A stretch of 64,000 nt of DNA from Candidatus Bathyarchaeia archaeon (GCA_049513715.1 JBEKVV010000003.1:464359-528358), one strand, 5' to 3'. Shown: positions 1 to 64,000, counted from the stretch's first letter. Notes: generated by a model not told the origin, from the letters alone. Made by a program: numbers and translations.

Positions 1-1762
1 CCGTTCCATCTAGAAGGTGGTAGTACTCGGAACCACCCAATTCTCGTTTGGTTTTCCCTACCGCGAATATTGCTTCTTCATCTTGCTTGAAACCCAATTT
101 CGTGATATGTTCGGGTTTCTCAACCAATCCGAGAACGCTGATGACAGGCGAAGATTTTATCGCCTTTTTGGTCACCTCGTCTTGGTTGTAGAAGCTTACT
201 TTACCACCGACGCAGGGCAAAGAGAGAACATTCGCGAAGTCCGCTATACCTTTCACCGTCATTGAGAAGGCCCCGAAGATCCTCTCGTCGTTCGGATCGC
301 CGAACTGACAATGGTCGAGAAAGGCGATTGGTTCCGCGCCAACGGCAACGATGTTGCGACATGCCTCCGCAAGTACACTCGCACCGCCGACGTAAGGGTC
401 CATATCACAAAACCGTGCGTTACCGTCAACTTTGACCGCGGCGAACTTCCCGTTAGGCAATCTTAGCACAGCTGCATCAGATTCACCAGGTTTGGCAATT
501 GTTCTAATTCCTACCTCATGGTCGTATTGGCTGTAGACCCATTCTTTGCTTGCGATTGTCGGAGAACTCAGGAGGTTCAGAAAGAGCGCTTCGATTCCTT
601 GGGAAGGACAAGGCTCAGACCCCTGATTGAAAAAGTGTGGTGGCTTGCCAATCCTGTGGATGATGGGCGCATTCGCGAGAAAACGAGTTGGAAGGTCGGC
701 AATCACTGTGCCGTAACGAACAATCGACACTTTCCCAGTTGATGTGACCGCTGCGATGCGGGCGAAGGACACACCGTATTTTCTCATAATGCCCAGCAGT
801 GTTGGTTCATGCCCTTCCTTCACCACGAGTAGCATCCTCTCTTGAGATTCCGAGATCATGATTTCAATCGAGTTCATGTCTGATTCGCGAATCGGAATTT
901 CCTCTAAGTAAACCTCTAGGCCAGTGCCGCCTTTGTCGGCTATTTCCGAAAGTCCCGTTGCCAGTCCGCCTCCGCCCAGGTCTTTGCAGCCTCGTAGAAT
1001 TCCGGCTCTGCTTGCTTCCAGCGTTGCTTCAATGATCAATTTCTTGGTGAAAGGATCAGGTATCTGTACCGCCGACCTTTCTTCTTCAGAATTCGCGGCG
1101 AGTGTTCTTGACGCGAAAGTTGCTCCGTGAATTCCGTCGCGTCCTGTGGACCCGCCTATTAGGTAGACACTGTCCGCCGGGTGTGTCGCCTCTGCGAGCA
1201 GCAGCTCTTCCTTCCTGCCCAAGCCTAGGCACGCAACGTCAACGAGGCAGTTCCTCTCGAAGCATTCGTCGAATTCAATCTCCCCCGCTACCGTTGGGAC
1301 GCCGATGCAGTTGCCGTAGTCAGCGATTCCCCTTACCACGTTCTTCATTATCCATTTGGAGTGATCGCTCTTTGTAATGTCGCCGAACTTTAGGGAATCG
1401 AGTAGAGCGATTGGAATACTTCCCATGCAGAGGATGTCGCGGACGACGCCTCCTATTCCTGTTGCAGCTCCGCCGTAAGGTTCGATGGCGCTAGGATGGT
1501 TGTGGCTTTCAATATGAAACGTCAGAACATAGCCGTCTCCAATGTCGACAACGCCGGAATCATAGCCAGGGCCGACTAGGACGCGCGGCCCGGTTGTCGG
1601 AAGCTGTGTTAGCAGGGGTTTGGAGGATTTGTAGCTGCAATGCTCGCTCCATTCTGCGTCAATCAATGCCCACTCGAGTGCATTGGGTTCTCTTCCAAGT
1701 TGTTTGCGAGCGTACTGAATTTCATCGGGGGTGAGTGTGGTTTCGATTTCTCCAACTAGCAT
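1..1762 (-). CDS. purL: Phosphoribosylformylglycinamidine synthase subunit PurL (runs off the window edge; missing from ORF track)
   Basis: Manual translation from ATG at 1762: MLVGEIETTLTPDE...WSEHCSYKS...ESHNHPSAIEPYGGAATGIGG; ATG overlaps the purQ stop. Confidence 0.95.
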   Translation of the reverse strand, partial: MLVGEIETTLTPDEIQYARKQLGREPNALEWALIDAEWSEHCSYKSSKPLLTQLPTTGPRVLVGPGYDSGVVDIGDGYVLTFHIESHNHPSAIEPYGGAATGIGGVVRDILCMGSIPIALLDSLKFGDITKSDHSKWIMKNVVRGIADYGNCIGVPTVAGEIEFDECFERNCLVDVACLGLGRKEELLLAEATHPADSVYLIGGSTGRDGIHGATFASRTLAANSEEERSAVQIPDPFTKKLIIEATLEASRAGILRGCKDLGGGGLATGLSEIADKGGTGLEVYLEEIPIRESDMNSIEIMISESQERMLLVVKEGHEPTLLGIMRKYGVSFARIAAVTSTGKVSIVRYGTVIADLPTRFLANAPIIHRIGKPPHFFNQGSEPCPSQGIEALFLNLLSSPTIASKEWVYSQYDHEVGIRTIAKPGESDAAVLRLPNGKFAAVKVDGNARFCDMDPYVGGASVLAEACRNIVAVGAEPIAFLDHCQFGDPNDERIFGAFSMTVKGIADFANVLSLPCVGGKVSFYNQDEVTKKAIKSSPVISVLGLVEKPEHITKLGFKQDEEAIFAVGKTKRELGGSEYYHLLDGT

Positions 1763-51829: not shown

Positions 51830-52123
51830 ATGAAAAGGGGTTCTCAGATGATTACGGCGTTCGTTATGATGAACGCGGAACGAGACCGCATCGCACAAGT
51901 ACCCGACGAATTACTCAAAATCACCGGCGTCACAGAAGTCTACTCCGTAGCAGGAGACTACGACCTAGTCGCCACAGTCCGCGTCAAACAAGCCGAAGAC
52001 CTGGCGAAGGTAGTCAGGGAACAATTCGTGAAGGTTCGTGGGATAACTAGGACGATGACGCTGATTGCTTTCAGGTGCTACAGCAACTACGACCTAGAAC
52101 ACATGTTCAGCATAGGAAACTAA
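51830..52123 (+). CDS. Lrp/AsnC ligand-binding-domain-only protein; apparent integration target
   Basis: GVTEVYSVAGDYDLVA, GITRTMTLI; no HTH. Confidence 0.88.
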   Translation: MKRGSQMITAFVMMNAERDRIAQVPDELLKITGVTEVYSVAGDYDLVATVRVKQAEDLAKVVREQFVKVRGITRTMTLIAFRCYSNYDLEHMFSIGN

Positions 52124-52149
52124 TGCTAGGCCTGGCGCACAGATAACTC

Positions 52150-52282
52150 ATGGTGCGCAAGCACAAGAAGCAACGGTTCAAATTCAGTTGCCAGCACCAC
52201 TAGACCCACACACACAAAATAACGGTTCAAATTACGGTGCTCGCACCACTAGACCCACACACACATTTTTGACGGTGCTCGC
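52150..52282 (+). repeat. Island repeat family: two tandem copies (49-bp period) plus a partial third
   Basis: GGTTCAAATT-N4-TGCNNGCACCA-CTAGACCCACACACACA with cores at 52175 and 52224; ACGGTGCTCGC again at 52272. Confidence 0.9.
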
Positions 52283-52541
52283 TTCGCTCGCAGACTCGTT
52301 TTCCATGTAGCATGGGTTGGAATGGGATGCGTTATTTTGTGGAGGTAGTAAATGGTGAATCTTGAGAGCCTTTTGCGTGTTCAGTTTTGGTTTAGTGGAA
52401 AGGCTAGTGTAGTGTATTTCTCTGCCACGAAATACCCCATTATGGGTGGGGTGTTTCTACCGACGCGTGTTGAAAACTCCTGTTATGCTTTGAGTTCGAC
52501 CGCCATCTTGCCGCTATCCCATCGCATCACACAAAACCCGT

Positions 52542-54689
52542 TTAGGGTCGGAGTGTCGCGCCGCTTGACGATGTGACCAGGACCCACATGGCTTGCCCCG
52601 GTTGAAGTACGTAGGATGAGTTTGCCCTAATCCATGTGCCACTAGAAGTATCGTACAACCAAACGTTACCCACATCATAGCTGCCAGTAATGCTGGATAA
52701 GTAGACGCCAACCGTTTTGGGTTCGGTAGCGTTCGGCTGCGACTTAAACCCAACCAAATTCCAACCCGCAACCAGCGAGTAGGATGGTGGTGTCGAGCCG
52801 AATGGGATTACGGAACCATTAACGTACAACGTACCCGCAGCCCTCATGAAGACACAGTACCCGAACCCGTCCACCATCGTCGTCAAAGTGCTCGGTTTGC
52901 CGGGAATGTAGAACTTCCAGCTCAGCGGAGTTCCAGTATAACCCCACACCACACCAAGGTTACCTGATGCAGCCAAAGACCTCATCTTGTTCACAGCGGA
53001 CGAGTCCACTGGAACCACGGGCAACGAGACCAGATTCCAACCCGCAACCAGCGGCACGCTATAGGCGTAGGCGATACCCCCAACATCCATGATCACCCCG
53101 TTCATCACCTCATCCCGATCATCCGAAGGCACCCCATCAGTCAGGTTTAGGAGGGCTACTGTGCGGTTCTGGCTGACAGTGAAGTGGCTGACGGGAAGCT
53201 GACGCCAGACACCATTATGAAAAGTCCAGTACATCAACCCAGGCCCGTTAGGCAGCGGGGCAGGCAACGTCACAGTCACGTTCACAGACGCCCCCGCCGT
53301 CAAATTGCCGACCGTCATGTTGAACAAGCCAAATGGAAACGTCAAGCCAGCAGGCGAGAGAGGAGATGCACTCGCAGGACTCAACGCCGTCAAACCCACA
53401 AAGCTACCATTGTTCACCGTGAAGACCACGCTACCCATACCAGTCGCAGACACTAGATCGCCCTGAGGCTTACTCCGCTTCTCAACCCTCCACTCTTCCT
53501 TGCTACCTGCCGCGTTCGAGTCGTATCCGACCACGTAGACGCCTGAAGCATCAACAGCAACACCAGAAGCGTAGTCGCTGCTGGTGCTGATCTGCTCCGA
53601 CACGGCCCAGATGATTACCCCGGTTGCTAGGCTCCGCTTCTCAACCCTCCACTCATCGTGGTTGCCAGCAGTGTTCTCATCACCTCCGCCCACGTAAACG
53701 CCTGAACCATCAACAGCAACACCATGAGACGCATCGGACCCGCTGCTGCTGATGTGCTCTGACAGTGCCCAGATGATTACTCCGGTTGTTAGGCTCCGCT
53801 TCTCAACCCTCCACTCATAGTGGTTGCCAGCGGTGCTCGAGTCGCCTCCGACCACGTAAACGCCTGAAGCGTCAACAGCAACACCATGAGCGGTGTCATA
53901 ACTGGTGCTGATATCCTCCGACACAGCCCACATGATTACTCCGGTTGTTAGGCTCCGCTTCTCAACCCTCCACTCATAGTTGCCGGGAACTTGGTCAAAG
54001 CCGACCACGTATACGCCTGAACCATCAACAGCAACACCATAAGCGACGTCCCAACTGGTACTGATATCCTCCGACACAGCCCACATGATTACTCCGGTTG
54101 TTAGGCTCCGCTTCTCAACCCTCCACTCAGAGTTGGTGCCAGCAGTGTTCGAGTCGTATCCGACGACGTATACGCCTGAACCATCAACAGCAACACCATA
54201 AGCGTAGGAGCTGCCGGTGCTGATGTCCTCCGACACAGCCCACATGATTACTCCGGTTGTTAGGCTCCGCTTCTCAACCCTCCACTCAAACGTGTTCCCT
54301 GCACCGTTATGATCGAATCCGACTGCGTATAGGCCTGAACCATCAACAGCAACACCATAAGCCCAGTCGTTGTAGCTGCTGATATGCTCAGACACGGCCC
54401 ACATGATCGCGCCAGTGGTCAGGCTTCTCTTCTCAACCCTCCACTCATATGACCCGCTCACAGTATTGTTGTCAGCTCCGACAGCGTAGAGTCCCGAGGC
54501 GTCAACAGCAACACCATTAGCCCACTCGCTGCTGGTGCTGATATGTTCCGACACAGCCCACACTTTGCTTCCTGGTGGGGGATACGGTGTAACGGCCTTG
54601 ACGGGTTGTGGTGGATTCAAGGCGGGGAACATTATTGCTATCAGGGATAGGAGAAGTACGGAACGGATTACGGTACCCCGTCTAATCAA
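52542..54689 (-). CDS. Secreted/surface protein: 7-bladed beta-propeller, choice-of-anchor-U-like domain, two AGWNLV repeats
   Basis: Signal peptide; 7x GVAVD.SG.Y.VG...EWRVEKRS; LTDG...D.D...NGVI.D.GG; LVAGWNLV twice. Confidence 0.8.
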   Translation of the reverse strand: MIRRGTVIRSVLLLSLIAIMFPALNPPQPVKAVTPYPPPGSKVWAVSEHISTSSEWANGVAVDASGLYAVGADNNTVSGSYEWRVEKRSLTTGAIMWAVSEHISSYNDWAYGVAVDGSGLYAVGFDHNGAGNTFEWRVEKRSLTTGVIMWAVSEDISTGSSYAYGVAVDGSGVYVVGYDSNTAGTNSEWRVEKRSLTTGVIMWAVSEDISTSWDVAYGVAVDGSGVYVVGFDQVPGNYEWRVEKRSLTTGVIMWAVSEDISTSYDTAHGVAVDASGVYVVGGDSSTAGNHYEWRVEKRSLTTGVIIWALSEHISSSGSDASHGVAVDGSGVYVGGGDENTAGNHDEWRVEKRSLATGVIIWAVSEQISTSSDYASGVAVDASGVYVVGYDSNAAGSKEEWRVEKRSKPQGDLVSATGMGSVVFTVNNGSFVGLTALSPASASPLSPAGLTFPFGLFNMTVGNLTAGASVNVTVTLPAPLPNGPGLMYWTFHNGVWRQLPVSHFTVSQNRTVALLNLTDGVPSDDRDEVMNGVIMDVGGIAYAYSVPLVAGWNLVSLPVVPVDSSAVNKMRSLAASGNLGVVWGYTGTPLSWKFYIPGKPSTLTTMVDGFGYCVFMRAAGTLYVNGSVIPFGSTPPSYSLVAGWNLVGFKSQPNATEPKTVGVYLSSITGSYDVGNVWLYDTSSGTWIRANSSYVLQPGQAMWVLVTSSSGATLRP
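53470..54565 (-). repeat. Seven intragenic tandem repeats of 153-162 bp
   Basis: EWRVEKRS-coding block at 53473, 53632, 53794, 53953, 54106, 54265, 54424. Confidence 0.95.
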
Positions 54690-55196
54690 ACTTCACACCA
54701 GTTAGACGATTAACAGTCGATTACGTGGCCATGAGTAATTATCATTTTCCATGTTGATTCACAATGACTACGAAAAGTCAATACTGCACATACTCTACAG
54801 TGCATTGAATAACACAGAACAGCAATGCACTATACTCTTCCCAGTCGAGGTCCTCGAAGTTGAATCGTAGTCGCGTGTCCCATGGGCTCTTGCCCAAGAA
54901 ACCATCGCGCGTTTGCGGAAAAGAAACGCGCAGGCTAGGTACCGCGAAACTTCCTGGCAAAAAACAAACATCGCGAGGTTAGCGAGAAAACAAGAAAACA
55001 AACATCGCAACCAACGCGCAATTTTCGCAACGCTGATTGCAACAAGTCACACTTGGTTTAGGTTTTTGTGACATGCAACCACGAAAAGAAACACGGTTCT
55101 TCGCTATTGCACGGTTCACTCTGGTCACATCGAAACTGCAGCTGCAGCTTTTTTGCTATTGCTCTAATATCCTCTTTCATGTATGGGTTGAGTGAG

Positions 55197-55268
55197 GGTG
55201 CACATACACAAACCCGCCAGAATTGACGGTTCAATTGTGGATGCTCGCACCATTGGACCCACACACAA
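55197..55268 (+). repeat. Island repeat family copy
   Basis: GGTTCAATTGTGGATGCTCGCACCA-TTGGACCCACACACA, core 55228-55252. Confidence 0.85.
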
Positions 55269-55346
55269 GAAATCGAAATCAACGTCCTAGAATGAATGAC
55301 GGATCTAGACTAGAAAAATAGGTGGAGGGCCCTATGGGTCCTGCGT

Positions 55347-55802
55347 TTAGGTTACGGTTACAGTTGTATTTGCAACTGTAGTCGTGGCAGTTATGGTGGT
55401 ATTGGCTACTTCGGTGGTTAGAGTCTCTGTGATTGTTGTGTTCGTCCCTGGTTGAGTGATTGTTTCGGTGATTGTTGAGTTCGTCCCCGGTTCAGTGATC
55501 GTTTGTGTGATGTTTTGGGTCACAGTTACAGGTTGGTTTTGCGTTACGGTGGTGGTTTCGGTTACTGTGGCTGTTTTTTTGTTGTGGTTGTTCTCGTTAT
55601 TGTTGTCATCGTTGTTATTGCCGTTGTCGTCATTTGTTTCAGTTTGATTGTGACTATCAGTGTGAGTGTGACTCTTGCTGCTTGAGCTGAGTGTTGAGTG
55701 TTTGTCGGCGAGTGTCACGTTGGGCTGGAGCGCAAGAACTGAGACTGCTAGGAGCAGTAGCACGATTGCCACCTTTCGTGTTTGAATGGTGTGGGTTTTC
55801 AT
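55347..55802 (-). CDS. Secreted Thr/Asn-rich low-complexity protein (possibly truncated surface glycoprotein)
   Basis: Signal-like VAIVLLLLAVSVLA; N/D tract; TVTETTT/TITETIT repeats; NxT sequons; no C-terminal anchor. Confidence 0.7.
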   Translation of the reverse strand: MKTHTIQTRKVAIVLLLLAVSVLALQPNVTLADKHSTLSSSSKSHTHTDSHNQTETNDDNGNNNDDNNNENNHNKKTATVTETTTVTQNQPVTVTQNITQTITEPGTNSTITETITQPGTNTTITETLTTEVANTTITATTTVANTTVTVT

Positions 55803-56014
55803 TTTCTGATCCACTTTTTCCTGATTGCCTTTTGACATGGAGATAGGTATATCAGTGTTCGCTCTATGGCACATACACGTTTCAATAGAAAAAGCGGGGA
55901 GAGCCCCTGGGAGCCATGGAACACATGGACTCCAAATTACAAATAGATCTACGCGACCGCCTCCGCGTAGCGGACTCAGGGTGGACACACCTCATCGAGG
56001 GTAGATTCCACCCA

Positions 56015-56158
56015 CGCGTCAAAGAAGCCGAAGACCTAGCCAAAGTGGTCACAGACCAATTCGTGAAAGTCGAAGGGATTACTAGAACCATGACGCTAAT
56101 CGCGTTCAGATGTTACAGCAACTACGATCTAGAACACATGTTCAGCATAGGAAATTGA
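56015..56158 (+). pseudogene. Displaced 3' half of the Lrp/AsnC gene
   Basis: RVKEAEDLAKVVTDQFVKVEGITRTMTLIAFRCYSNYDLEHMFSIGN*; sequence upstream of 56015 is unrelated to the gene. Confidence 0.85.
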
Positions 56159-56253
56159 CCCCGGTTCTAACCCGAATGGGCGCAAACCCCTCCAAAACAA
56201 CACTATTCGCCCCTGTAGCGTTAACGAGTCCATTCCGTGGGTTAGACCTTGGT

Positions 56254-56289
56254 GGGTGACATCACCCGAGGGTGAGGTGACATCACCTC
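56254..56289. promoter_or_regulatory. Two palindromic GGTGA-CA-TCACC boxes 21 bp apart (operator or recombinase site candidate)
   Basis: GGTGACATCACC at 56255 and 56276. Confidence 0.5.
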
Positions 56290-56349
56290 CCTCCCTTGTT
56301 GCGAACTGCATCAAACTTCTGCAAAAAATCAGTCGAAGTGCCCGCAAGG

Positions 56350-56706
56350 TTAGAACACTCGGGTAACCGGCTTGAATGCGGGGACCGGCCGTGTCCTCGT
56401 AGCGAACATGGCCAATGCGATGCCCCAGGCACGGTCATCATGCGTCCCATCTGGGTGGCTGAATTGAATTTGACCAGCCTTGGTGAGCTGGAATCGTTCG
56501 ATGTTCAACTCGTTGGCTAACTCAAGTTGATAGGGGATCAGGAATCGTTTCTGCTGCATCATCATTTTGAGGTAGTTCATCACGTCCTGTTTGGCTGGTG
56601 CGGAGAGGACGATGCCTTCTGCGTTAGGGAGCGATTTCTTCGCTTCTTCTACGACACTCTCTCCAACGCCCGTTTGGTCGATTAGAATTCTATGAACTGT
56701 TTGCAA
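56350..56706 (-). pseudogene. Terminase large subunit C-terminal (RNase H-like nuclease) fragment
   Basis: ILIDQTGVGESVVE, K..VM..LK..MQ, HDDRAWGIALA; ATPase domain absent. Confidence 0.75.
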
Positions 56707-56774
56707 CTTCTTCGTGAGAACTCGAACTCAGCCTTCAGAAGCGTGGCTATGAAGGTTGGGATGCTTCACTGCTA

Positions 56775-58286
56775 GTGCTCCCTGTTAATTGGCGTTGCCA
56801 TAGAAATCCTATGAAGAATGATGATCGATGCGTTTTCCATTCAGACAAGAAAGATGCGGCCACTTTCGATACGGCGCTTCGAAGAGAGATCAGTAACAGT
56901 AAAATCAAATCGTTTGACTTCACAGGGGCGATCTTCCCGGAGCCGGGTGTCGATCTGACCTGCATATCGCAAAGCAAACCGATTTTGTTTACTGGAGCCG
57001 ATTTCCGAGGACAGACTTTCTTCAATGGAACAACATTCGGCGAGGTTGATTTCCGGAAAGCGACGTTCGACAATGAGGTCACATTCGAGAACGCCGTATT
57101 CAAACGCCGCTCCAAGTTTGAGGGAGCAAAGTTCACCGACGCTTCTTTCAAAGGAGCCACTTTCGAGGACGTAGCTGATTTTCAATTCGCCAAATTTGAC
57201 GTCGGAGATTTCTTTGACGCAACATTCAGCAAGAATGTGAGTTTCCAATGGTCAGAATTGCACGATGTTTCATTTGTTTCGACCAACTTCAAGGCTCAAG
57301 TTGATTTTGCCTCATGCACAATGAGTGGATGTGACTTTGACGACGCGACGATTGCTTGGCAATCATTCTTCGACAGAGCAAAGTTGAGCGATGTTTCTTT
57401 CGAGGCTACCACATTTGTTAGACCCGTGTCGTTCGATGAGTGTATTTTCTCTGGAACTTCGAAATTTACCAACACTGTCTTTCTATCACAGGCAAGTTTC
57501 CGCGACGTTCATGGGAACGCGCGAGACAGCGTTTTGTTCGCCGGTAATCCCGCCGACTTGACGGCAGAATTACTCGAAGACAGTAACGGAGAACCTCCTC
57601 TAGATGACGAATTGAGAGCAGAGCTTGACAACCAAAAGAAAATCGCTTCAATTGGCCATATCAGTCTGAGACTAGTGACCCTCAGTGGAGCAGACATCAG
57701 CACCATGCAGTTCCTCAATGTTAACTGGAATAGCAAGTCATACGGAGTTTGGCCCTTCTCTAGGACAAGAAGCGCAATATTCGATGAGATCCAACAAGAA
57801 GGAAGCCGCACATCAGCGGATTATGAATCGGTCGCGGCGACCTACAGACAGCTTCGGGGGAATTATGAAGCTGAACTAAGGTATCATGAAGCTGGCGACT
57901 TCTACGTCGGCGAAATGGAGATGCGACGGCTCCAGCTCTCTTGTCAGTCCAGATTTGGCCTTTGGCGCTGGGTACGTCGCAATATTCTCTCGATATTGGG
58001 TTGGTACAGGAATATCAGCTTCTACGGCGAGAGTTACCTGCTCTCAGGTTCATGGATCATTGGAATGATTTTGCTCTTTGCTATGGTGCATGGAGTCTCT
58101 ATGTGGAATTCGGAAGCGATCAAATGTAACTCCACTATCAACTTCCGCGATTTACTGAGCGAAAGCCTTTTTGCCTTTTTCCAACTGAAAAGCGACACCA
58201 ACTTGGACCTGGTGGAGCGTCTAATTGGGGCCTTCCTAAGCGGAATGCTATTCATTCCCCTGAAGCGTCATTTCGAGAGACGCTAG
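56775..58286 (+). CDS. Pentapeptide-repeat protein with C-terminal membrane (ion-channel-like) region
   Basis: N-terminal C...CVFH; many [AV]xFxx repeats; A..FY..EME.RR, SFYGES, two TM segments. Confidence 0.8.
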   Translation: MLPVNWRCHRNPMKNDDRCVFHSDKKDAATFDTALRREISNSKIKSFDFTGAIFPEPGVDLTCISQSKPILFTGADFRGQTFFNGTTFGEVDFRKATFDNEVTFENAVFKRRSKFEGAKFTDASFKGATFEDVADFQFAKFDVGDFFDATFSKNVSFQWSELHDVSFVSTNFKAQVDFASCTMSGCDFDDATIAWQSFFDRAKLSDVSFEATTFVRPVSFDECIFSGTSKFTNTVFLSQASFRDVHGNARDSVLFAGNPADLTAELLEDSNGEPPLDDELRAELDNQKKIASIGHISLRLVTLSGADISTMQFLNVNWNSKSYGVWPFSRTRSAIFDEIQQEGSRTSADYESVAATYRQLRGNYEAELRYHEAGDFYVGEMEMRRLQLSCQSRFGLWRWVRRNILSILGWYRNISFYGESYLLSGSWIIGMILLFAMVHGVSMWNSEAIKCNSTINFRDLLSESLFAFFQLKSDTNLDLVERLIGAFLSGMLFIPLKRHFERR

Positions 58287-58517
58287 TTGGACCTCGCCAT
58301 ATGTGCACGCATGCTATCATACCATTTGCGATACTCACCACACAAAAACTCTACGATTGTTGGAGAGGTGAAGCTATCTAACAGAAGCTCCAACCAAATG
58401 CGAGCGCGACATCCCTACCAACCGCGGAACGTGTTCGGCCCTCACTTCGATGTAGACTGACCTAGGATTGCACCCCAGAGAAAAAGACCGGCTACGGCCT
58501 ATCCCTAGGAAAGGCAT

Positions 58518-59333
58518 TCAACAACACTGAAACAGGTAGTCAGGTAGCGCATCAATCGCCAGCATAGGATACCCCAACGTCTCGCGCGCAGCCCTTGCTA
58601 GACTCTCGTAGAGAGAGGGCACCAACAGGTCCCCATATCGATACACGATGCCTCCACGCTTAATCACGGCGTTGTACGCAATATCCTCATCCACGTATCG
58701 AGCAATAATAAAAGGCACCAATCCCAATTGTCGGGCAACTCTAACCTTCATGTTAACGTCATCTCGTGTGTCCCATTCATATCGAATCCAGTTTTTCACA
58801 TCCACGCCGTACAAAAGCCCGTCACGCTCAAAAACAAAATCGACGTTCGGAGGCTCTTTCCCTGACACTCCGTGGACCTTTCGCCCCGAGAACTCAGACA
58901 CATCTCTGCCGTGAAATTTGAACCCTAGAGAGAGAAACGCATGCTCGAAAAGATCCTCAGCATGCGCACCCGCTGGCGAAACCCCCGTAAGAACATTGGC
59001 AACTCCTTCCGAAACGTCCTTTTTCTTCTTGATCAGATCTTTTACAGAATCATAGTTAGTCCCACTCAACACATAGAACGAAACCACGTCCGTACCAACT
59101 ATCCGCCTCCTTCCAGGATATCCAACTTTCTCAACAACCTCATCATTAATCAAAACTCCAAGGGCGCGCCCAACGACCCATGGGAAAAAAGTCTTCTCCA
59201 GTCGTACTTTCAGCTCTCTGTCCGTCGCTACTGAAACTTCGCCAAGAATTTCCGAGATTCTTGGCATCGCCTCAGCAACTCTTGGATCCATCTCCTCATC
59301 TTCGCTGGGCTCCCACCCTTCCATCGAACCCAA
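58518..59333 (-). CDS. PD-(D/E)XK restriction-endonuclease-like protein with N-terminal winged-helix-like region
   Basis: G.HAE.LF, NVDFVF, GVDVKN. Confidence 0.6.
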   Translation of the reverse strand: MGSMEGWEPSEDEEMDPRVAEAMPRISEILGEVSVATDRELKVRLEKTFFPWVVGRALGVLINDEVVEKVGYPGRRRIVGTDVVSFYVLSGTNYDSVKDLIKKKKDVSEGVANVLTGVSPAGAHAEDLFEHAFLSLGFKFHGRDVSEFSGRKVHGVSGKEPPNVDFVFERDGLLYGVDVKNWIRYEWDTRDDVNMKVRVARQLGLVPFIIARYVDEDIAYNAVIKRGGIVYRYGDLLVPSLYESLARAARETLGYPMLAIDALPDYLFQCC

Positions 59334-59593
59334 ACCTCGCGAAAGAACCTATCCCGAAAAGCATGCCCTACCCATATCTGCGTTTGGTTAAAACTAGTGC
59401 GCAGCGCTAATCGTTAGTCTTTCGACGACGCTAACAACTGAGACAAAGCAACACCATATCACAGAATGAATATTCAGCATCTACACCCACGTGCTGCCCC
59501 GTGTTTATCAATAGTGCACTAAACCGCAAACACGAAACCACTGAATCACAAACAACAAAACACAACCCGTTCATTCGTTCGTTTTCGGGGGGC

Positions 59594-59626
59594 GGGTCTA
59601 ATGGTGCGAGCAGTCCAATTTGAACT
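59594..59626 (-). repeat. Island repeat family copy (inverted)
   Basis: Reverse complement reads AGTTCAAATTGGACTGCTCGCACCA-TTAGACCC. Confidence 0.85.
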
Positions 59627-59875
59627 CGACATAATCGGGTGCCGAGCTAAGGGTTCAGTGTAAGATACGTATCATAGAAGAACGAGAACATCTTGTCTGA
59701 AGAGAAAGGCTCCCCTCCCGACAATCATCCCGGCTTCGCGGAGCCAAGCACAACAGCTACTGGAGGTTCGAATCCGACCCACCACAAGAACGACGGAACC
59801 CCCCGTAGTAGGGGGGCGGTGCCAGTCGGCGAACATCCGCTCCAGAAGATCTACCACTCACCGAAAAACTTGTGG

Positions 59876-60010
59876 CTAGTTGTGTTTGGACAGGACTGTT
59901 CTTAGAGTGTTTAGAGAAATGTTGGCGCCGCTTACAATCACCACTACTTTCTCCCCCACTTTGAGCTTGGCCTTCTCAAGTAATGCTGCGATGGCGGCTG
60001 TTGCCAGGAT
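59876..60010 (-). pseudogene. C-terminal fragment of a PLP-dependent threonine/serine dehydratase
   Basis: ATAAIAALL...GEKVVVIVSGANI. Confidence 0.65.
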
Positions 60011-60017
60011 ACGAATC

Positions 60018-60318
60018 TCAAGCAGCGAGCTCGCCGTTGAGTTTAGCGCGGACTTTCGCATAGATGCGAAATCATTCTTTGGCCTTGACATTCTTTCGCA
60101 GGTAATGGAGCGTACTCCTGCTGATTCCTAGTTTTCCAGCTTCCGACTGAGTTATACCAAGAATCTTCTCTCTAACCACTCGATCATCAGTCGTCTCAAA
60201 AATAAGGTAAGGGAGCAGAGAAATCAGGGCTACGAGAGCTACCACTCAGGTATATCGCCAGTTCGCTCGTTTTTTCCTGAATTACCGTATGCCATTTCAG
60301 AATGCGACCCTTGTAGCT
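60018..60318 (-). pseudogene. cas1: 3' remnant of a solo Cas1 (casposase-like) gene with C-terminal HTH extension; one frameshift, one internal stop
   Basis: SYKGRILKWHTVIQEKTSELAIYLSGSSRSPDFSAPLP / IFETTDDRVVREKILGITQSEAGKLGISRSTLHYLRKNVKAKE*FRIYAKVRAKLNGELAA*. Confidence 0.75.
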
Positions 60319-60408
60319 ATGCAGCACTTTCACTCGTCTCACTGACTATTCAGTCTCTTCGCAAGAACACTCTCACGCTTACTAGATATGAAAGGTTGAG
60401 GAGACTTA

Positions 60409-60735
60409 TTGTTGGCCGTCGAATCAATCAAGGCCATCCCTATTCACCAGGTACGCGCATGGGCGAACCAGCTTGCTGGTGAAGCTCGTGACGCGGATTG
60501 GCTTCGTTATTCGTATGTTGTTCCTGATGTGCTGAACGATGTCGCTCAAGAACTGGAGGGGGGGTACCGCGGATTGATAGGGCTCGTGGGGCGACAAGGA
60601 GTAGGCAAGAGCAGCGCATTGATGGCGCTTATGAAAGGAATCCCATTCTCTCTGCGCCCACAAAACGCGAAGATTCTTTTCAAGTGGCGAAGGGAAAAGG
60701 AACTCTTCGCGACTCTTCTGAACAACACTTGCTAG
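60409..60735 (+). pseudogene. Truncated P-loop NTPase
   Basis: LIGLVGRQGVGKS Walker A, then stop before any Walker B. Confidence 0.6.
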
Positions 60736-60749
60736 TATCTTTCGGAAAC

Positions 60750-61364
60750 TCACAGGGCTTTCTTCAGGGCCCGTATGTTGAATGTTGTATTGGCGCAACC
60801 ATTCCTGATTAAAGGCACATTTTGACCTGGCAGCCCCGTCTTCTCTAACAGCCCTTCAGCTAGCTTGATCTCCTCGCCGCAGGCGACTCCCACAAGCGCC
60901 TCATAACGGCCTTTTTGCAGAATCTGATGGATACATGACCCACCCGGCAGAACATAAACATCGTACCCTTTCTCCTCCCCAGCCAGTGTCGCTTGGTTTA
61001 CCAAGCAGTCGGGTGAACAGTGAGAGCAGCCGTATGATGGAATGTTCGAATCGAAGACGGCTTTACACCGATTGTCCATATACTTCCTTGAGCAGTGAGG
61101 AAGCAGTAGCACTCGCCTGGAAGTTCTTACGAATCTTTCCCGGTTGTTGAAATTCTTAGTCTGGATATCTATCAAGTCCTCGAGGAGCATCAGAGCTTGA
61201 GCAAAATCCAACCCTGTGATCTCCTGAACTCTAAATCGTTCAAGAAGACGTAGAGTTGCCTCGCCAATTCTTCTGTGCAGCTTTCTCTTTTGGGCAGCCA
61301 GCGCAATTCCTGTGAAGAACGATTGAGATAGCCGTGTCAGGTCGAACTTGAATTGGTAAGGCAT
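60750..61364 (-). CDS. DUF116 family protein
   Basis: LLLPHC.R....C, C..C...C, LPGGS, VGVAC..E, VPL...GC. Confidence 0.85.
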   Translation of the reverse strand: MPYQFKFDLTRLSQSFFTGIALAAQKRKLHRRIGEATLRLLERFRVQEITGLDFAQALMLLEDLIDIQTKNFNNRERFVRTSRRVLLLPHCSRKYMDNRCKAVFDSNIPSYGCSHCSPDCLVNQATLAGEEKGYDVYVLPGGSCIHQILQKGRYEALVGVACGEEIKLAEGLLEKTGLPGQNVPLIRNGCANTTFNIRALKKAL

Positions 61365-61595
61365 GAGTCTCGTATTACCGCCAGGAGCAATAAGCTCAAA
61401 GGACGAGTCTTGGTTTTGGTACTTAATCAGAAGTGTGCGTTGTCCATTCTCTGGCGGACGTGTGTGTGGTACAGCTGGCGCGCACGCACACAAAAATAGG
61501 GACCCATGTGGACTGAGACACCGTGCCATCGAACAACTGTCAACTTCACCTTATTAGCGTCCGGTCACCACAGCGACATTGAATAGCTGATTTCT

Positions 61596-61832
61596 GTGGC
61601 TGAGAATTCGTCTTCACGCAATACACCCAAGTACCCTTTCTTTGATTTTATGCGAGGAATTCAACCGGTTAGGGAACACAAGGGGTGGCGCATCTTCCGA
61701 TTCAAGCAGGCCTATCATGCAGCTGAAGGATGGATCGACTTGTATGTTGGCTACAAGCCCGAACGCGTCCTAATTGATGGACTCGGCCTCAAGTCTGTAG
61801 TCTCAGACATTGACGAAGCTGAACAAGCATAG
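61596..61832 (+). CDS. Hypothetical protein
   Basis: 78-aa ORF, no motif. Confidence 0.4.
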   Translation: MAENSSSRNTPKYPFFDFMRGIQPVREHKGWRIFRFKQAYHAAEGWIDLYVGYKPERVLIDGLGLKSVVSDIDEAEQA

Positions 61833-62148
61833 TGCTCTCTTGGTCCCGTTATTCCGTGAGGGAAGTCGGGGCGCTATTGTATGACAGATCGGCTTAGCGA
61901 GGAACAGGAACGGGCTGCTGCGAAAAAGATGGACGAATTCTACGAAGTGTTGGGGTCAGCCGCCTGGACAGATCGGAAGGTTACTGGTTGAAATGCAGAG
62001 AGTGCGGAAAGGAATGGAAGCATACTGTGGAAATGACTCCACTCACCCATTGGGTACGCCCAAACAAGTGCAACTTGAGGGAACAACGAAAAACATTTAG
62101 GGCATAAACAAACGCAAGCGGTTCGTAATGTGACTGCTTGTGTTTTCG

Positions 62149-62286
62149 TGGTGCGCACAAAATAACGCCTGAAGTGACGGTTCAAATCGTTTTCCAACAG
62201 GCGATCTGGTCAGCAGTTTCCTGTGTGTGTGGTCTGGTGGTGCGTGCATCAGAATTTGAACTTTAGCTTTACTGTTTGCGCACCAT
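62149..62286. repeat. Island repeat family: partial forward copy (62149-62187) facing a full inverted copy (62221-62286)
   Basis: Reverse complement of 62221-62286 aligns with 52150-52216; 62149-62187 aligns with 55197-55236. Confidence 0.85.
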
Positions 62287-62322
62287 CGGTCAGGTTCGAT
62301 TTGCGAATTCTCGCTTAGGCGC

Positions 62323-62368
62323 TTATATGTACCGGTAAATTGGGGTCAAAATCCCCTGCCCCGCACCA
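62323..62368 (+). repeat. 40-bp direct repeat copy 1, ending in a tRNA 3'-end-like fragment
   Basis: TTATATGTACCGGTAAATT-GGGG-TCAAAAT-CCCC-TGCCCCGCACCA. Confidence 0.8.
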
Positions 62369-62822: not shown

Positions 62823-63080
62823 TTGCTTGAAGGTGGAACTGTGAAGATCGTGGCCCTCGGAGACAGCCTGACGGTCGGAGAAACCGGATTCTCTGATTCT
62901 GAAGAATCCGCTTCGTACCCGAAGTATCTTGAGACCCTTGCCGAAGAACATCTGCGCAGTCTCCAATCGGACGTGAAGGTCAACGTTCTGAATAGAGGAA
63001 TTAACGGTGATCTGACCTCGGGTATGCTCGAAAGGTTCGATAATTGGTTGAGGGCACTTCTGGACCAACATACAAAGTAG
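62823..63080 (+). pseudogene. N-terminal fragment of an SGNH/GDSL hydrolase
   Basis: KIVALGDSLT, NRGINGD...ML.RF, then stop; GxND and DxxH blocks missing. Confidence 0.75.
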
Positions 63081-63139: not shown

Positions 63140-63179
63140 TTATATGTACCGGTACATTGGGGCTGAAATTCCCTGCCCC
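63140..63179 (+). repeat. 40-bp direct repeat copy 2
   Basis: 35/40 identical to 62323-62362; contains perfect palindrome ATGTACCGGTACAT. Confidence 0.8.
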
Positions 63180-63233
63180 ATCTCTGAGGTCAAGCTCCGT
63201 GGGAAATCTAGACCGCCTTTCTTGCGGGGGGAA

Positions 63234-64000
63234 TCAGCTGTAGTCCATACTGCTTGTCTTTTTGCTTGCTGTTCGTACTCCTGTTTGACTGATGCGGTTG
63301 AGAATTGAGTGCATCTTCTGTTCTTTGCGAATGCTGCTCCAATAGTAGGCTTCGTCAACTGTGTCTTCAGCCATCAACACTGTGACCTTGCCGATTCTGG
63401 TTCTTCCGGTTCTCCCCCTTCGCTGAATGGTTCGTATTTCGGATGGCACTGCTTCATAGAAGATAACGTGGTCGACATCCGGCACATGTAGGCCTTCCTC
63501 GCCTATGCTTGTGGTTACGAGGATGTTGAACTTCCCCGATTTGAAGTCCTCCAACGTTTGCACTTGCTCCTTCTGTGATAGGCCTCGGCCTGAATCCTCG
63601 CTCGTTGCGTGGCCGACGAAGCGAACCGGGCGAGAGCCCCCCTCTTCCAGTTTCGTTACGATCAGCTCTACGGTGTCTCGATATTGCGTGAACACTATGA
63701 TGCGACTGGTTTGGTTCATCCTCAATTGTTCGATGATTAAGTTGGAGAGGAGGTTCAATTTCGGATGTGACGTGTGAATGTTATCGGTCAGCTGGATGGC
63801 TGTTTGAACTCGGGGGTCTTTCAGTAGGCTTTTGATGGTTCGTTTCGGGTTTTCTGACATGCGGGTAAAGTATTGCTTCAGATTCTGGATGTCTTGGGTT
63901 TCGAGGAGTTCTATGCCGTGGAGTAGGGAGATGGCTTGCGCTTGGAGTGTTAGGGCGGCGAAGATGTAACCCGAACGTCTCTTCCGAAGCCTTATGATTA
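63234..64000 (-). CDS. hef: Hef/FANCM-like SF2 helicase, C-terminal part (5' end outside window)
   Basis: HPKL, IVFTQYRDT, RFVG, GLSQKEQ, TSIGEEGL.VP.VD, FYEAVPSEIR.IQRRGRTGR. Confidence 0.88.
   Translation of the reverse strand, partial: IIRLRKRRSGYIFAALTLQAQAISLLHGIELLETQDIQNLKQYFTRMSENPKRTIKSLLKDPRVQTAIQLTDNIHTSHPKLNLLSNLIIEQLRMNQTSRIIVFTQYRDTVELIVTKLEEGGSRPVRFVGHATSEDSGRGLSQKEQVQTLEDFKSGKFNILVTTSIGEEGLHVPDVDHVIFYEAVPSEIRTIQRRGRTGRTRIGKVTVLMAEDTVDEAYYWSSIRKEQKMHSILNRISQTGVRTASKKTSSMDYS

Follow-up and report, generated by a model that had tools for sequence, protein, structure and literature searches.

The Bathyarchaeia, uncultured archaea that abound in peat and sediment, gain genes in ways that are little understood. 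In the genome of one peat member (G000), a 64,000-nt stretch of DNA, here called the window, contains dispersed short repeats that resemble the 3' end of a tRNA gene, which raises the question of what these repeats are and whether they mark the joints of acquired DNA. C3, C4, C7 and C11 denote contigs of G000, and G002 and similar codes its relatives. An earlier note on this DNA had claimed five 25-nt cores, and all were present (52175+, 52224+, 55228+, 59602- and 62238-), each matching RGTTCAAWTN5TGCNNGCACCA with 0 mismatches. The chance expectation for this pattern was 0.01, and five or more matches occurred in 0 of 100 shuffles. The tails were read directly as CTAG, CTAG, TTGG, TTAG and CCAG, each followed by ACCC; as described, four have a CA run, with GCCCCCC in its place in A4. 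The alignment of the outermost copies extended over 67 nt with ~80% identity, the three forward copies were 75–78% alike, and nhmmer gave 0 matches in the first 52 kb, where the note had seen none. The tRNA-like spacing of 16 nt from T loop to CCA was confirmed by a whole-genome scan free of circularity, in which the gap could vary (GTTCAAWT-N(4..16)-GCACCA) and was 10 in 40 of 40 matches. The members in the window, including two that the note had missed and a partial copy that proved real, are as follows.

52150..52216, + strand: copy A1, with an inverted GCACCA (TGGTGCGC, 52151-52158), the T-loop/acceptor mimic core (52175-52199) and the tail CTAGACCCACACACACA
52217..52265, + strand: copy A2, a 49-nt unit without cargo, with its core (52224-52248) and then a tail
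52270..52291, + strand: degenerate third unit, GACGG TGCTCGCTTCGCTCGC, without T loop or CCA (missed earlier)
55206..55270, + strand: copy A3, with the spacer ACACAAACCCGCCAGAATTGAC, core (55228-55252) and tail TTGGACCCACACACAAG
59585..59626, - strand: copy A4, with its core (59602-59626) and tail TTAGACCCGCCCCCCG
61450..61487, + strand: palindromic member, (GT)n, N4, inverted GCGCCA, GC and (CA)n AAAA, without the T-loop part (missed earlier)
62149..62187, + strand: partial copy, TGGTGCGC, spacer and GGTTCAAAT, broken right after the T loop
62221..62286, - strand: copy A5, with an inverted GCACCA (62278-62285), core (62238-62262) and tail CCAGACCACACACACA

The motif of the degenerate unit was also found 3' of family tails at C4:239955 and in G017, and ~230 nt upstream of A4 (to ~59850) were common to a copy at C4:240370. 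The family is built around the 6-nt GCACCA, which in the tRNA comprises CCA and the bases just before it; 3' of this core come four unconstrained bases and the tail ACCC(CA)nAAAA, and on its 5' side stands either a spacer with the T loop/acceptor mimic (GGTTCAAAT-TNNGN-TGCYC) or an inverted (GT)n arm. Among 84 GCACCA-N4-ACCCACAC modules, the T loop was in register in 38 and absent in 46, and about 30 of the latter, as read by eye from the list, come after (GT)n-GC. Of six partial copies, three broke just before GCACCA and two just after the T loop. The T loop and TGCYCGCACCA were near-invariant, with circularity at the positions fixed by the search pattern, and three would-be T-stem positions held <0.25 bit. 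The conserved positions held across ~20 species whose genomes are ~70% identical. Full-length copies with 20–22-nt inverted arms formed a long hairpin in 4/6 cases outside the window (z <= -3.1), with two stems, an unpaired spacer between them and a variable loop; their left and right tetranucleotides neither matched nor were complementary in 5/5 parsed. The outer arm is absent from most copies, including those of the window, whose folding did not surpass that of shuffles (z -1.1 and -0.7). Cargo-less tandem units measure 49–61 nt.

The note had held that the repeats are not tRNAs, and three analyses agreed. ARAGORN found 0 tRNA genes in the window, with Rfam there were 0 matches at the gathering score, and even at E<=5 no copy matched a tRNA or any other family. 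All five T-stem pairs (49-53 with 61-65) were present in just 2/42 family copies, much as with shuffled partners (~0.7 of 42), vs 26/36 other T-loop...NCCA ends, mostly true tRNAs; the variable bases had no consistent pairing partner. We also considered 3' halves of split tRNAs and a hidden intact tRNA whose acceptor would be GCGRGCA/TGCYCGC; both ideas were rejected, as none was found in G000 and five candidate loci in relatives gave no tRNA match. A BLAST hint that the region upstream of A4 is homologous to a tRNA body was not convincing once aligned.

The source tRNA was located at about C3:86163-86290. It is a tRNA-Gly(GCC) (Rfam tRNA, 42.4 bits; anticodon taken from the alignment), and the gene ends GGTTCAAATCCCGGCGGCCGCACCA, followed by the family tail CTGGACCCACACACAAAAT. 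The T loop, GCACCA and the downstream tail are common to the repeats and this gene, and intermediate copies contain the exact CGGCCGCACCA, although in the acceptor portion 2–3 positions separate the mimic (TGCYCGC) from the tRNA (CGGCCGC), which counts against this origin. Judged by sequence, the repeats are evidently copies of one part of the tRNA-Gly(GCC) gene, its T loop and acceptor/CCA end, together with the downstream flank. We compared 13 such loci, that of G000 and 12 from 11 relatives. Directly behind the CCA, G016, G004, G012 (both contigs) and G007 have a tail or spacer, then a family core (partial in G016) and then another tail. Family units thus lie directly 3' of this gene in 4/11 relatives; G000 has the tail only, G018, G021, G010, G002 and G008 had no unit there, and G014 and G013 were ambiguous.

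We next asked where the repeats lie relative to inserted DNA. A1 lies at the left edge of an island, 26 nt past the stop of an Lrp/AsnC-like gene. In 6/7 relatives this gene abuts a convergent PLP gene, with stop codons seen to overlap in five; in G000 the two are at least 7.7 kb apart. A second gap, from FtsY/DTD to NusG, measures 5,442 nt in G000 and contains family copies, vs ~0.3–0.6 kb in 21/21 relatives. Its outermost copy is oriented as A1, with the T-loop side toward native DNA and the tail inward. The empty-site comparison proposed in the note therefore gave uninterrupted gene order at both loci, at the level of gene order only, since relatives that are ~70% identical leave insertion points and duplicated bases unreadable; exact breakpoints at the Lrp/PLP site were sought and abandoned because the gene ends are too diverged. 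The single 10-kb element with nested terminal inverted repeats that the note had envisaged gave way to two facing arrays in a larger insertion extending beyond the contig end. Within it, A2 and A3 are direct repeats around 3 kb, and the following displaced or acquired sequences and sites of a linked second family (family B, missed in the note) were identified.

52542..54689, - strand: cargo gene for a 715-aa secreted repeat protein with a DUF7671 match
56015..56154, + strand: displaced second copy of the Lrp/AsnC-like gene 3' end (84%; first copy 51980-52119)
56350..56706, - strand: terminase large-subunit nuclease domain fragment (Terminase_6C, 9e-8), a viral remnant within the island
59840..60004, - strand: displaced 3' fragment of a threonine-dehydratase-like PLP gene, 93% identical to C7:29727-29891
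62323..62368, + strand: family B site, TTATATGTACCGGTAAAT, T-arm mimic GGGGTCAAAATCCCC and TGCCCCGCACCA
63140..63189, + strand: second family B site, ending ATCTCTGAGG

A paralog of the 715-aa protein (72% identical) on C11 also adjoins family copies, in opposite relative orientation, and the intact threonine-dehydratase-like gene is on C7. In duplicated segments, homology ended at the repeats and at family B: a 96% homology between C11 and C7 begins at core position +18, CGCACCA, and homology to C7:10511-10664 ends exactly where the second family B site ends. This site closes an internally deleted GDSL-lipase cassette (62823-63080), and the lipase gene moves together with the family B site on its 3' side. 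The first family B site lies 36 nt from A5, an inverted A–B pairing that occurs in other genomes too. Family B, which includes a TATA-like TTATATG, mimics another tRNA end and shows clean recombinant junctions; a PF00589 integrase is encoded within ~1 kb of that tRNA in G000 and at least six relatives.

A genome-wide nhmmer search of G000 returned 64 matches in 26 clusters, many near contig ends. The note had named even scatter over the genome as contrary to its reading; the copies were indeed genome-wide, but clustered in accessory regions. Outside crude ORFs, which cover 85% of the genome, lay 38/46 copies, with flanks of mostly unique DNA and varied accessory genes. No orientation relative to neighbouring genes was fixed, and all four classes occurred in both families, which counts against the explanation that we favour below. 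The family was present in 16/22 same-genus genomes and, beyond the genus, almost only in Bathyarchaeia MAGs; a second genus has the identical anatomy with GAC instead of CA as the tail repeat. On viral contigs, seven of nine pattern matches were ordinary phage tRNAs, one contig, whose record contains no integrase, carried a full-length copy flanked by host-like genes and by restriction-modification genes, and family B had 0 matches. A literature search, with subscription papers mostly outside its reach, found no description of the family.

The casposase-like protein that the note had placed at 60.0-60.3 kb was not recovered: PF01867 had 0 matches at E<=0.01 in all six frames of the entire genome, and 60.07-60.25 kb contains nothing but a sub-threshold 57-aa helix-turn-helix piece. 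Y1 (HUH) transposases (PF01797) had 0 matches in the genome, no serine recombinase was found, and none of four TnpB-like genes is near the sites; links to casposons, IS200/IS605 elements and serine recombinases were accordingly dropped. PF00589 had no match among the ORFs of the window's island, nor in the vicinity of tRNA-Gly(GCC) in those genomes that allowed the positions to be compared, nor at E<=1e-5 anywhere in G018, which is 98% complete and contains family copies. That no recombinase could be tied to the sites counts against the reading favoured below. Classical integrated elements do occur at tRNA genes in G000, e.g. C3:166058-181371 with an integrase. Logan contigs from four public runs had the arrangement of G000; their joints are short, with a shorter side of <=48 letters (mostly <40), and resemble cross-matching to further copies of the family, so that neither an excision nor an inversion form was callable. 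When metagenomes were scanned with the end of the Lrp gene, one other contig came up, identical in arrangement and without an excision variant.

Three other explanations have to be weighed. The repeats might be MITE- or REP-like non-autonomous elements, 50–100-nt units copying themselves into intergenic DNA, preferably behind the regenerated tRNA-like end, with cargo borders as a by-product of insertion into already variable DNA. Tandem units without cargo, the subset with hairpin-forming arms, the intergenic position without fixed orientation and the units behind tRNA-Gly(GCC) without a nearby integrase would suit such elements. As in the note, however, no target-site duplication was seen at the copies read; inverted arms are confined to a subset, no parent element was found, and one multi-copy element with these ends was rejected, as the flanks are mostly unique and no larger element has common ends. 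The copies are also not near-identical, the left and right tetranucleotides of full-length copies mismatch, no Y1 transposase was found and the TnpB-like genes lie elsewhere. We therefore consider self-copying rather unlikely.

That the repeats are inert scars, i.e. displaced tRNA-Gly 3' ends and arm remnants of old, ordinary integrase-bearing elements, scattered by rearrangement and now functionless, seems unlikely as well. The islands do contain other displaced gene ends (the Lrp copy, the PLP and terminase fragments), the arrangement is unchanged in the four runs and the second metagenome contig, and integrase-bearing elements exist at tRNA genes of G000. Neutral decay, however, should hit all positions, whereas the T loop, acceptor and CCA are near-invariant over ~20 species while a few defined positions vary, and the anatomy is unchanged in the second genus. 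A role in regulation or as an RNA, whether as a promoter or terminator module or as a small structured RNA that ends like a tRNA, is very improbable: despite the TATA-like motif of family B and the folding of full-length copies, the lack of fixed orientation in both families led us to reject a promoter or terminator role, and the Rfam, T-stem and pairing-partner results, like the shuffle-level folding of the window copies, are against an RNA.

We favour, at about even odds (roughly 0.5), the reading that the repeats are att-type junctions derived from the tRNA-Gly(GCC) 3' end and its flank, with GCACCA as the core, bounding serially captured cargo. Their position at the edges and inner seams of inserted DNA makes them look like docking or joining sites for captured genes. 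This reading is carried directly by the anatomy, the conservation pattern, the tRNA-Gly(GCC) link, the island edges with empty sites and the breakpoints. The landing-site interpretation of the note thus stands in general through the edges, breakpoints and units behind tRNA-Gly(GCC), but is not supported as to the casposase and the single element. Strands would be exchanged in or beside GCACCA by a putative site-specific recombinase, with a tyrosine integrase supplied in trans as the likeliest candidate; the point of exchange, enzyme class, action in trans and present activity of the sites are all putative. The incoming element would read tail, cargo, spacer and mimic, between two GCACCA cores. 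Since the exchange would involve only bases that both partners have in common, the tRNA would stay functional at its end, and the T-stem positions of the mimic, never entering the tRNA, would be free to vary. Repeated insertion would build arrays, including the cargo-less 49–61-nt units, although these are too small for former circles, so that their origin needs another step, which counts against the proposal. Copies landed outside the tRNA gene would become secondary docking sites, the route to a non-tRNA locus not being part of the proposal, and the window would show two such arrays facing each other within one large insertion that separates two convergent core genes. A bolder version is possible but doubtful: an integron-like cassette capture of Bathyarchaeia on imitation tRNA ends, in which full-length sites would fold as hairpins of two stems around an unpaired spacer, cassettes would be joined at GCACCA by a recombinase whose gene lies elsewhere, and cargo-less units would be portable docking pads seeding islands away from the tRNA.

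Short genus-wide seam sequences of acquired DNA are a practical marker for variable regions and a concrete substrate for testing Bathyarchaeia integrases, and they would account for the recurrent break points in assemblies of these genomes. Among known systems, a report on Prochlorococcus tycheposon islands describes tRNA-gene integrations after which partial tRNA copies remain at either side, newcomers pushing earlier insertions inward, with degenerate elements and further partial tRNAs scattered among cargo genes (bioRxiv 10.1101/2020.12.28.424599). The likeness lies in partial-tRNA att repeats flanking cargo in tRNA-anchored islands. The repeats described here, however, are not faithful tRNA pieces, because their T-stem bases can vary freely; dozens occur per genome, many far from any tRNA gene, and cargo-less tandem units and palindromic forms are among them, with no integrase at tRNA-Gly(GCC). 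The 'gene capture' in Sulfolobus attributed to She et al. in 2001 reportedly left chromosomal DNA enclosed by directly repeated tRNA gene ends, its elements being said to bring an integrase of their own, often split, along with exact tRNA repeats. It resembles our case as captured DNA bordered by tRNA-end repeats in an archaeal chromosome, but neither an own integrase nor exact tRNA repeats were found for the present family. MITEs and REP sequences are likewise small, intergenic, multi-copy and in part armed, whereas our repeats derive from a tRNA gene end and come without target duplications, a parent insertion sequence or a RAYT/Y1 transposase.

Integron cassette arrays likewise have short sites that separate single- or few-gene cassettes; the two stems, unpaired spacer and variable loop seen in some full-length copies recall attC sites, as does the GDSL-lipase gene travelling with its 3' family B site recall a cassette. 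The R''/R' boxes of attC read RYYYAAC...GTTRRRY, and GTTCAAA has C where GTTRRRY requires R. Unlike in integrons, gene–site orientation is not uniform, most copies are without a hairpin arm, and no integron integrase was identified in searches that did not include an IntI-specific domain. Archaeal integrons have also been reported (bioRxiv 10.1101/2022.02.06.479319). If the sites described here are active and served in trans, they would constitute a gene-cassette system built on tRNA-end mimicry, not on attC.

Five 25-nt cores had been described in the window by the earlier note, and all of them were recovered at their positions with no mismatch to RGTTCAAWTN5TGCNNGCACCA (0.01 matches expected by chance). 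Direct reading also agreed with that note on the tails and on a partial copy at 62149–62187. The sites of this family, termed family A, and of a second, linked family, termed family B, were as follows.

52175, + strand, core of A1
52224, + strand, core of A2
55228, + strand, core of A3
59602, − strand, core of A4
62238, − strand, core of A5
62323–62368 and 63140–63189 (+), family B sites

In agreement with the earlier note, the repeats are not tRNAs: ARAGORN found no tRNA in the window, and Rfam returned no family at the gathering score and no match touching the copies at E ≤ 5. The 16-nt spacing from T loop to CCA is no artefact of the pattern, because a scan for GTTCAAWT and GCACCA with the gap left free (4–16 nt) gave a gap of 10 in 40 of 40 matches in the genome. 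Five T-stem pairs were present in 2 of 42 family A copies, which is the level of shuffled partners, versus 26 of 36 other T-loop...NCCA ends, mostly true tRNAs. The profile search matched only the five copies in the window and confirmed that its first 52 kb lack family A. The proposal of a single element with nested inverted ends was not borne out; instead, A1–A3 point rightward and A5 and A4 leftward, forming two converging arrays. A further shortened tRNA-end look-alike, GGAGGTTCGAATCCGACCCACCA, lies at 59760–59785 (+) within a unit of about 230 nt common to C4:240395–240620, on another contig of this genome.

The family A tail was found behind a real tRNA at C3:86166–86290, on the contig carrying the window (anticodon GCC; the Rfam tRNA model scores it at 42.4 bits): after the 3' end of this tRNA-Gly(GCC), GGTTCAAATCCCGGCGGCCGCACCA, the sequence continues with the tail, CTGGACCCACACACAAAAT. 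The gene was read directly at 12 loci in 11 related genomes. Directly behind its CCA, tail or spacer and then a family core with a further tail were present in G016 (partial core), G004, G012 (two contigs), and G007; no family unit stood there in G018, G021, G010, G002, and G008, and the loci of G014 and G013 were ambiguous. Since family units lie directly behind this gene in several relatives, the end of tRNA-Gly(GCC) serves as a primary landing place. Searches for an intact tRNA whose acceptor is TGCYCGC, as in the family, found none in this genome or at candidate loci in relatives. As for tRNA annotation, most tRNA genes of this genome have introns and an encoded CCA; ARAGORN without intron mode reported 9 tRNAs versus 18 with the Rfam model, and called the Gly(GCC) gene Val(cac).

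The constant piece of family A is GCACCA, four free bases (N4), and ACCC(CA)nAAAA, and 84 such modules were collected. A T-loop mimic in tRNA register preceded 38 of them and was absent from 46; about 30 of the latter (read from the list by eye) have (GT)n-GC upstream and therefore take a palindromic form, as at window 61450–61487. An inverted arm, then a spacer (AAAATAACGCCTGAACTGAC), and after it the mimic and tail make up the 'full-length' copies. Of six such copies outside the window, four folded (z ≤ −3.1) as an outer GT/CA stem with N4 unpaired, a TGGTGCG/CGCACCA inner stem, and about 45 nt of loop; the folding test revealed no hairpin of that kind in A1 and A5. The two N4 within one copy were non-complementary in all five copies parsed. 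In the mimic, the T loop and TGCYCGC were near-invariant and three positions free, by a measure that is partly circular. Among six partial copies, the break fell after the T loop in two, just before GCACCA in three, and at CAC in one, where a family B site follows.

A profile from 39 seeds gave 64 family A matches in 26 clusters over the whole genome, many of them no more than a few kb from a contig end. The flanking DNA is mostly unique, and thus the copies are not ends of one repeated element. Of 22 same-genus genomes, 16 carried the strict pattern including the tail; it also occurred in one other genus, and the reversed control gave no match. Scanning 185,579 species genomes for exact matches yielded 16 loci, 15 of them in MAGs titled Bathyarchaeia or Bathyarchaeota. 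In the other genus and some same-genus species, (GAC)n replaces (CA)n in the tail. A full-length copy with a (GAC)n arm also lies at about 2920–3050 of L075, a viral-collection contig classed as viral, flanked by archaemetzincin-like and Eco57I-type methylase genes; no integrase was found in this record. Extra TFIIB and TBP genes recur in repeat-bearing islands, and in two species a member of a 232-aa KaiC-like ATPase family (52–56% identity) adjoins a family A copy, at three loci in total.

C7:2509–3207, KaiC-like ATPase gene, this genome
L024:13502–14200, KaiC-like ATPase gene, G014
L026:402–1100, KaiC-like ATPase gene, G014

At two loci, family A copies lie at the edges of DNA that is inserted relative to related genomes, as judged from gene order. 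The Lrp/AsnC-like gene at window 51830–52123 abuts a threonine-dehydratase-like PLP gene in 6 of 7 relatives examined (overlapping stop codons are visible in 5 of the 6), and no family A copy is near the abutting genes there. In the studied genome, A1 begins 26 nt past the Lrp stop, and the window has only a 165-nt 3' fragment of PLP, at 59840–60004 (93% to C7). Contig C7 carries the PLP gene intact, adjoining a family B site. The island thus extends at least over 52124–59840 and, in our reading, probably continues across the contig break. In addition to a displaced Lrp 3' copy (84%) and a terminase fragment, it encodes a secreted repeat protein of 715 aa, a pentapeptide-repeat protein, a DUF116 protein, and others; no recombinase was found among them.

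The final 140 nt of the Lrp/AsnC-like gene occur twice at 84% (window 51980–52119 and 56015–56154), and the Lrp C-terminus reads FSIGN here versus FQIGFKG in relatives, as if the end of the gene had been replaced. The C-terminal region of a helicase is present in two copies, 94.6% identical, at window 63234–63998 and C4:240677–241451, and both contigs terminate inside these copies; the assembly break therefore falls in a duplicated gene. Several further contig ends carry the repeats. At the second locus, the gap between the FtsY/DTD and NusG/L11 blocks is 5,442 nt versus about 0.3–0.6 kb in all 21 relatives with both blocks on one contig. The insert carries family A copies with a RusA gene between them, and the outermost of these copies is placed like A1, with the tail facing into the insert and the T-loop side facing native DNA.

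Family B comprises 41 copies in this genome and was found in 14 of 22 same-genus genomes. It reads GGC-TTATATGTACCGGTAAAT, a T-arm mimic, and TGCCCC-ATCTCTGA or ...CCCCCGCACCA (tRNA acceptor-CCA), and TTATATGTACCGGTAAAT includes the 14-bp palindrome ATTTACCGGTAAAT. Its copies are intergenic and in co-oriented arrays, with about 12 on one strand of C5:160–220 kb in an array that begins at an integrase-adjacent tRNA; in several species, family B often abuts a family A copy in inverted orientation. In this genome and at least six relatives, a PF00589 integrase lies no more than about 1 kb from the tRNA whose end family B mimics. Behind tRNA-Pro lies a cargo segment of 5.4 kb, flanked by a repeat of the tRNA's end (25 nt) that carries B-type arms. 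Partners of duplicated segments switch at repeat sites, as seen at the four junctions compared.

C6:4966, left flank of C5:175038 joined to right flank of C5:182621
C5:206462 versus C1:892385, 97% over 1,541 nt, homology stops inside B
C7:10615 versus window 63140, homology stops at the last base of B
C11:8568 versus C7:1–443, 96%, homology begins at CGCACCA of a family A core

At the C6 junction (C6:4966–5092 versus C5:175026–175801 and C5:182517–182645), one B site unites both inner ends of a 7.6-kb C5 interval, as is expected for a circle or tandem junction; sharing is limited to the end pieces and excludes the cargo. Elsewhere, C3:166058–181371 carries two identical copies of a 25-nt tRNA end at a distance of 15 kb. 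A weak-scoring integrase of 470 aa adjoins the tRNA, and the segment resembles an ordinary integrated element without relation to family A.

The evidence fits an exchange of strands within or next to GCACCA, in which the tail would be the far arm of the incoming element, and the spacer with the T-loop/acceptor mimic its near arm, which would be tRNA-shaped because the enzyme must bind both partners. Such exchange would account for the arrays and the separable modules, and for T-stem positions being free. Cargo-less units of 49–61 nt, the palindromic form, and the arrival of sites at non-tRNA loci are left unexplained by it. A casposase had been suggested as the enzyme, but no Cas1 was found in this genome, and searches there for a Y1 transposase and a serine recombinase found none either. 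No integrase was present at tRNA-Gly(GCC) among the genomes compared, and G018 carries family A copies yet has no PF00589 match at E ≤ 1e-5. Tyrosine recombinases known from the genus include one of 319 aa at C5:218585–219541 and weak-scoring ones of 391 and 470 aa. There was no sign of current movement: the arrangement was the same in four public runs, compared as contigs in which rare variants are hidden, and in one further metagenome contig.

Among known systems, the integron attC site resembles the hairpin form of some full-length family A copies, and its defining boxes are absent from family A. Archaeal 'gene capture' likewise resembles family A. The nearest known picture, as far as the accessible part of the preprint describes it, is that of tycheposon-type islands, anchored at tRNA genes and with partial tRNA repeats dispersed through them (bioRxiv 10.1101/2020.12.28.424599). 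Compared with gene capture and these islands, family A differs in its hairpin form, in the lack of an integrase found, in its copy number, dispersal, and tandem empty units, and in a mimic that is degenerate but constrained.
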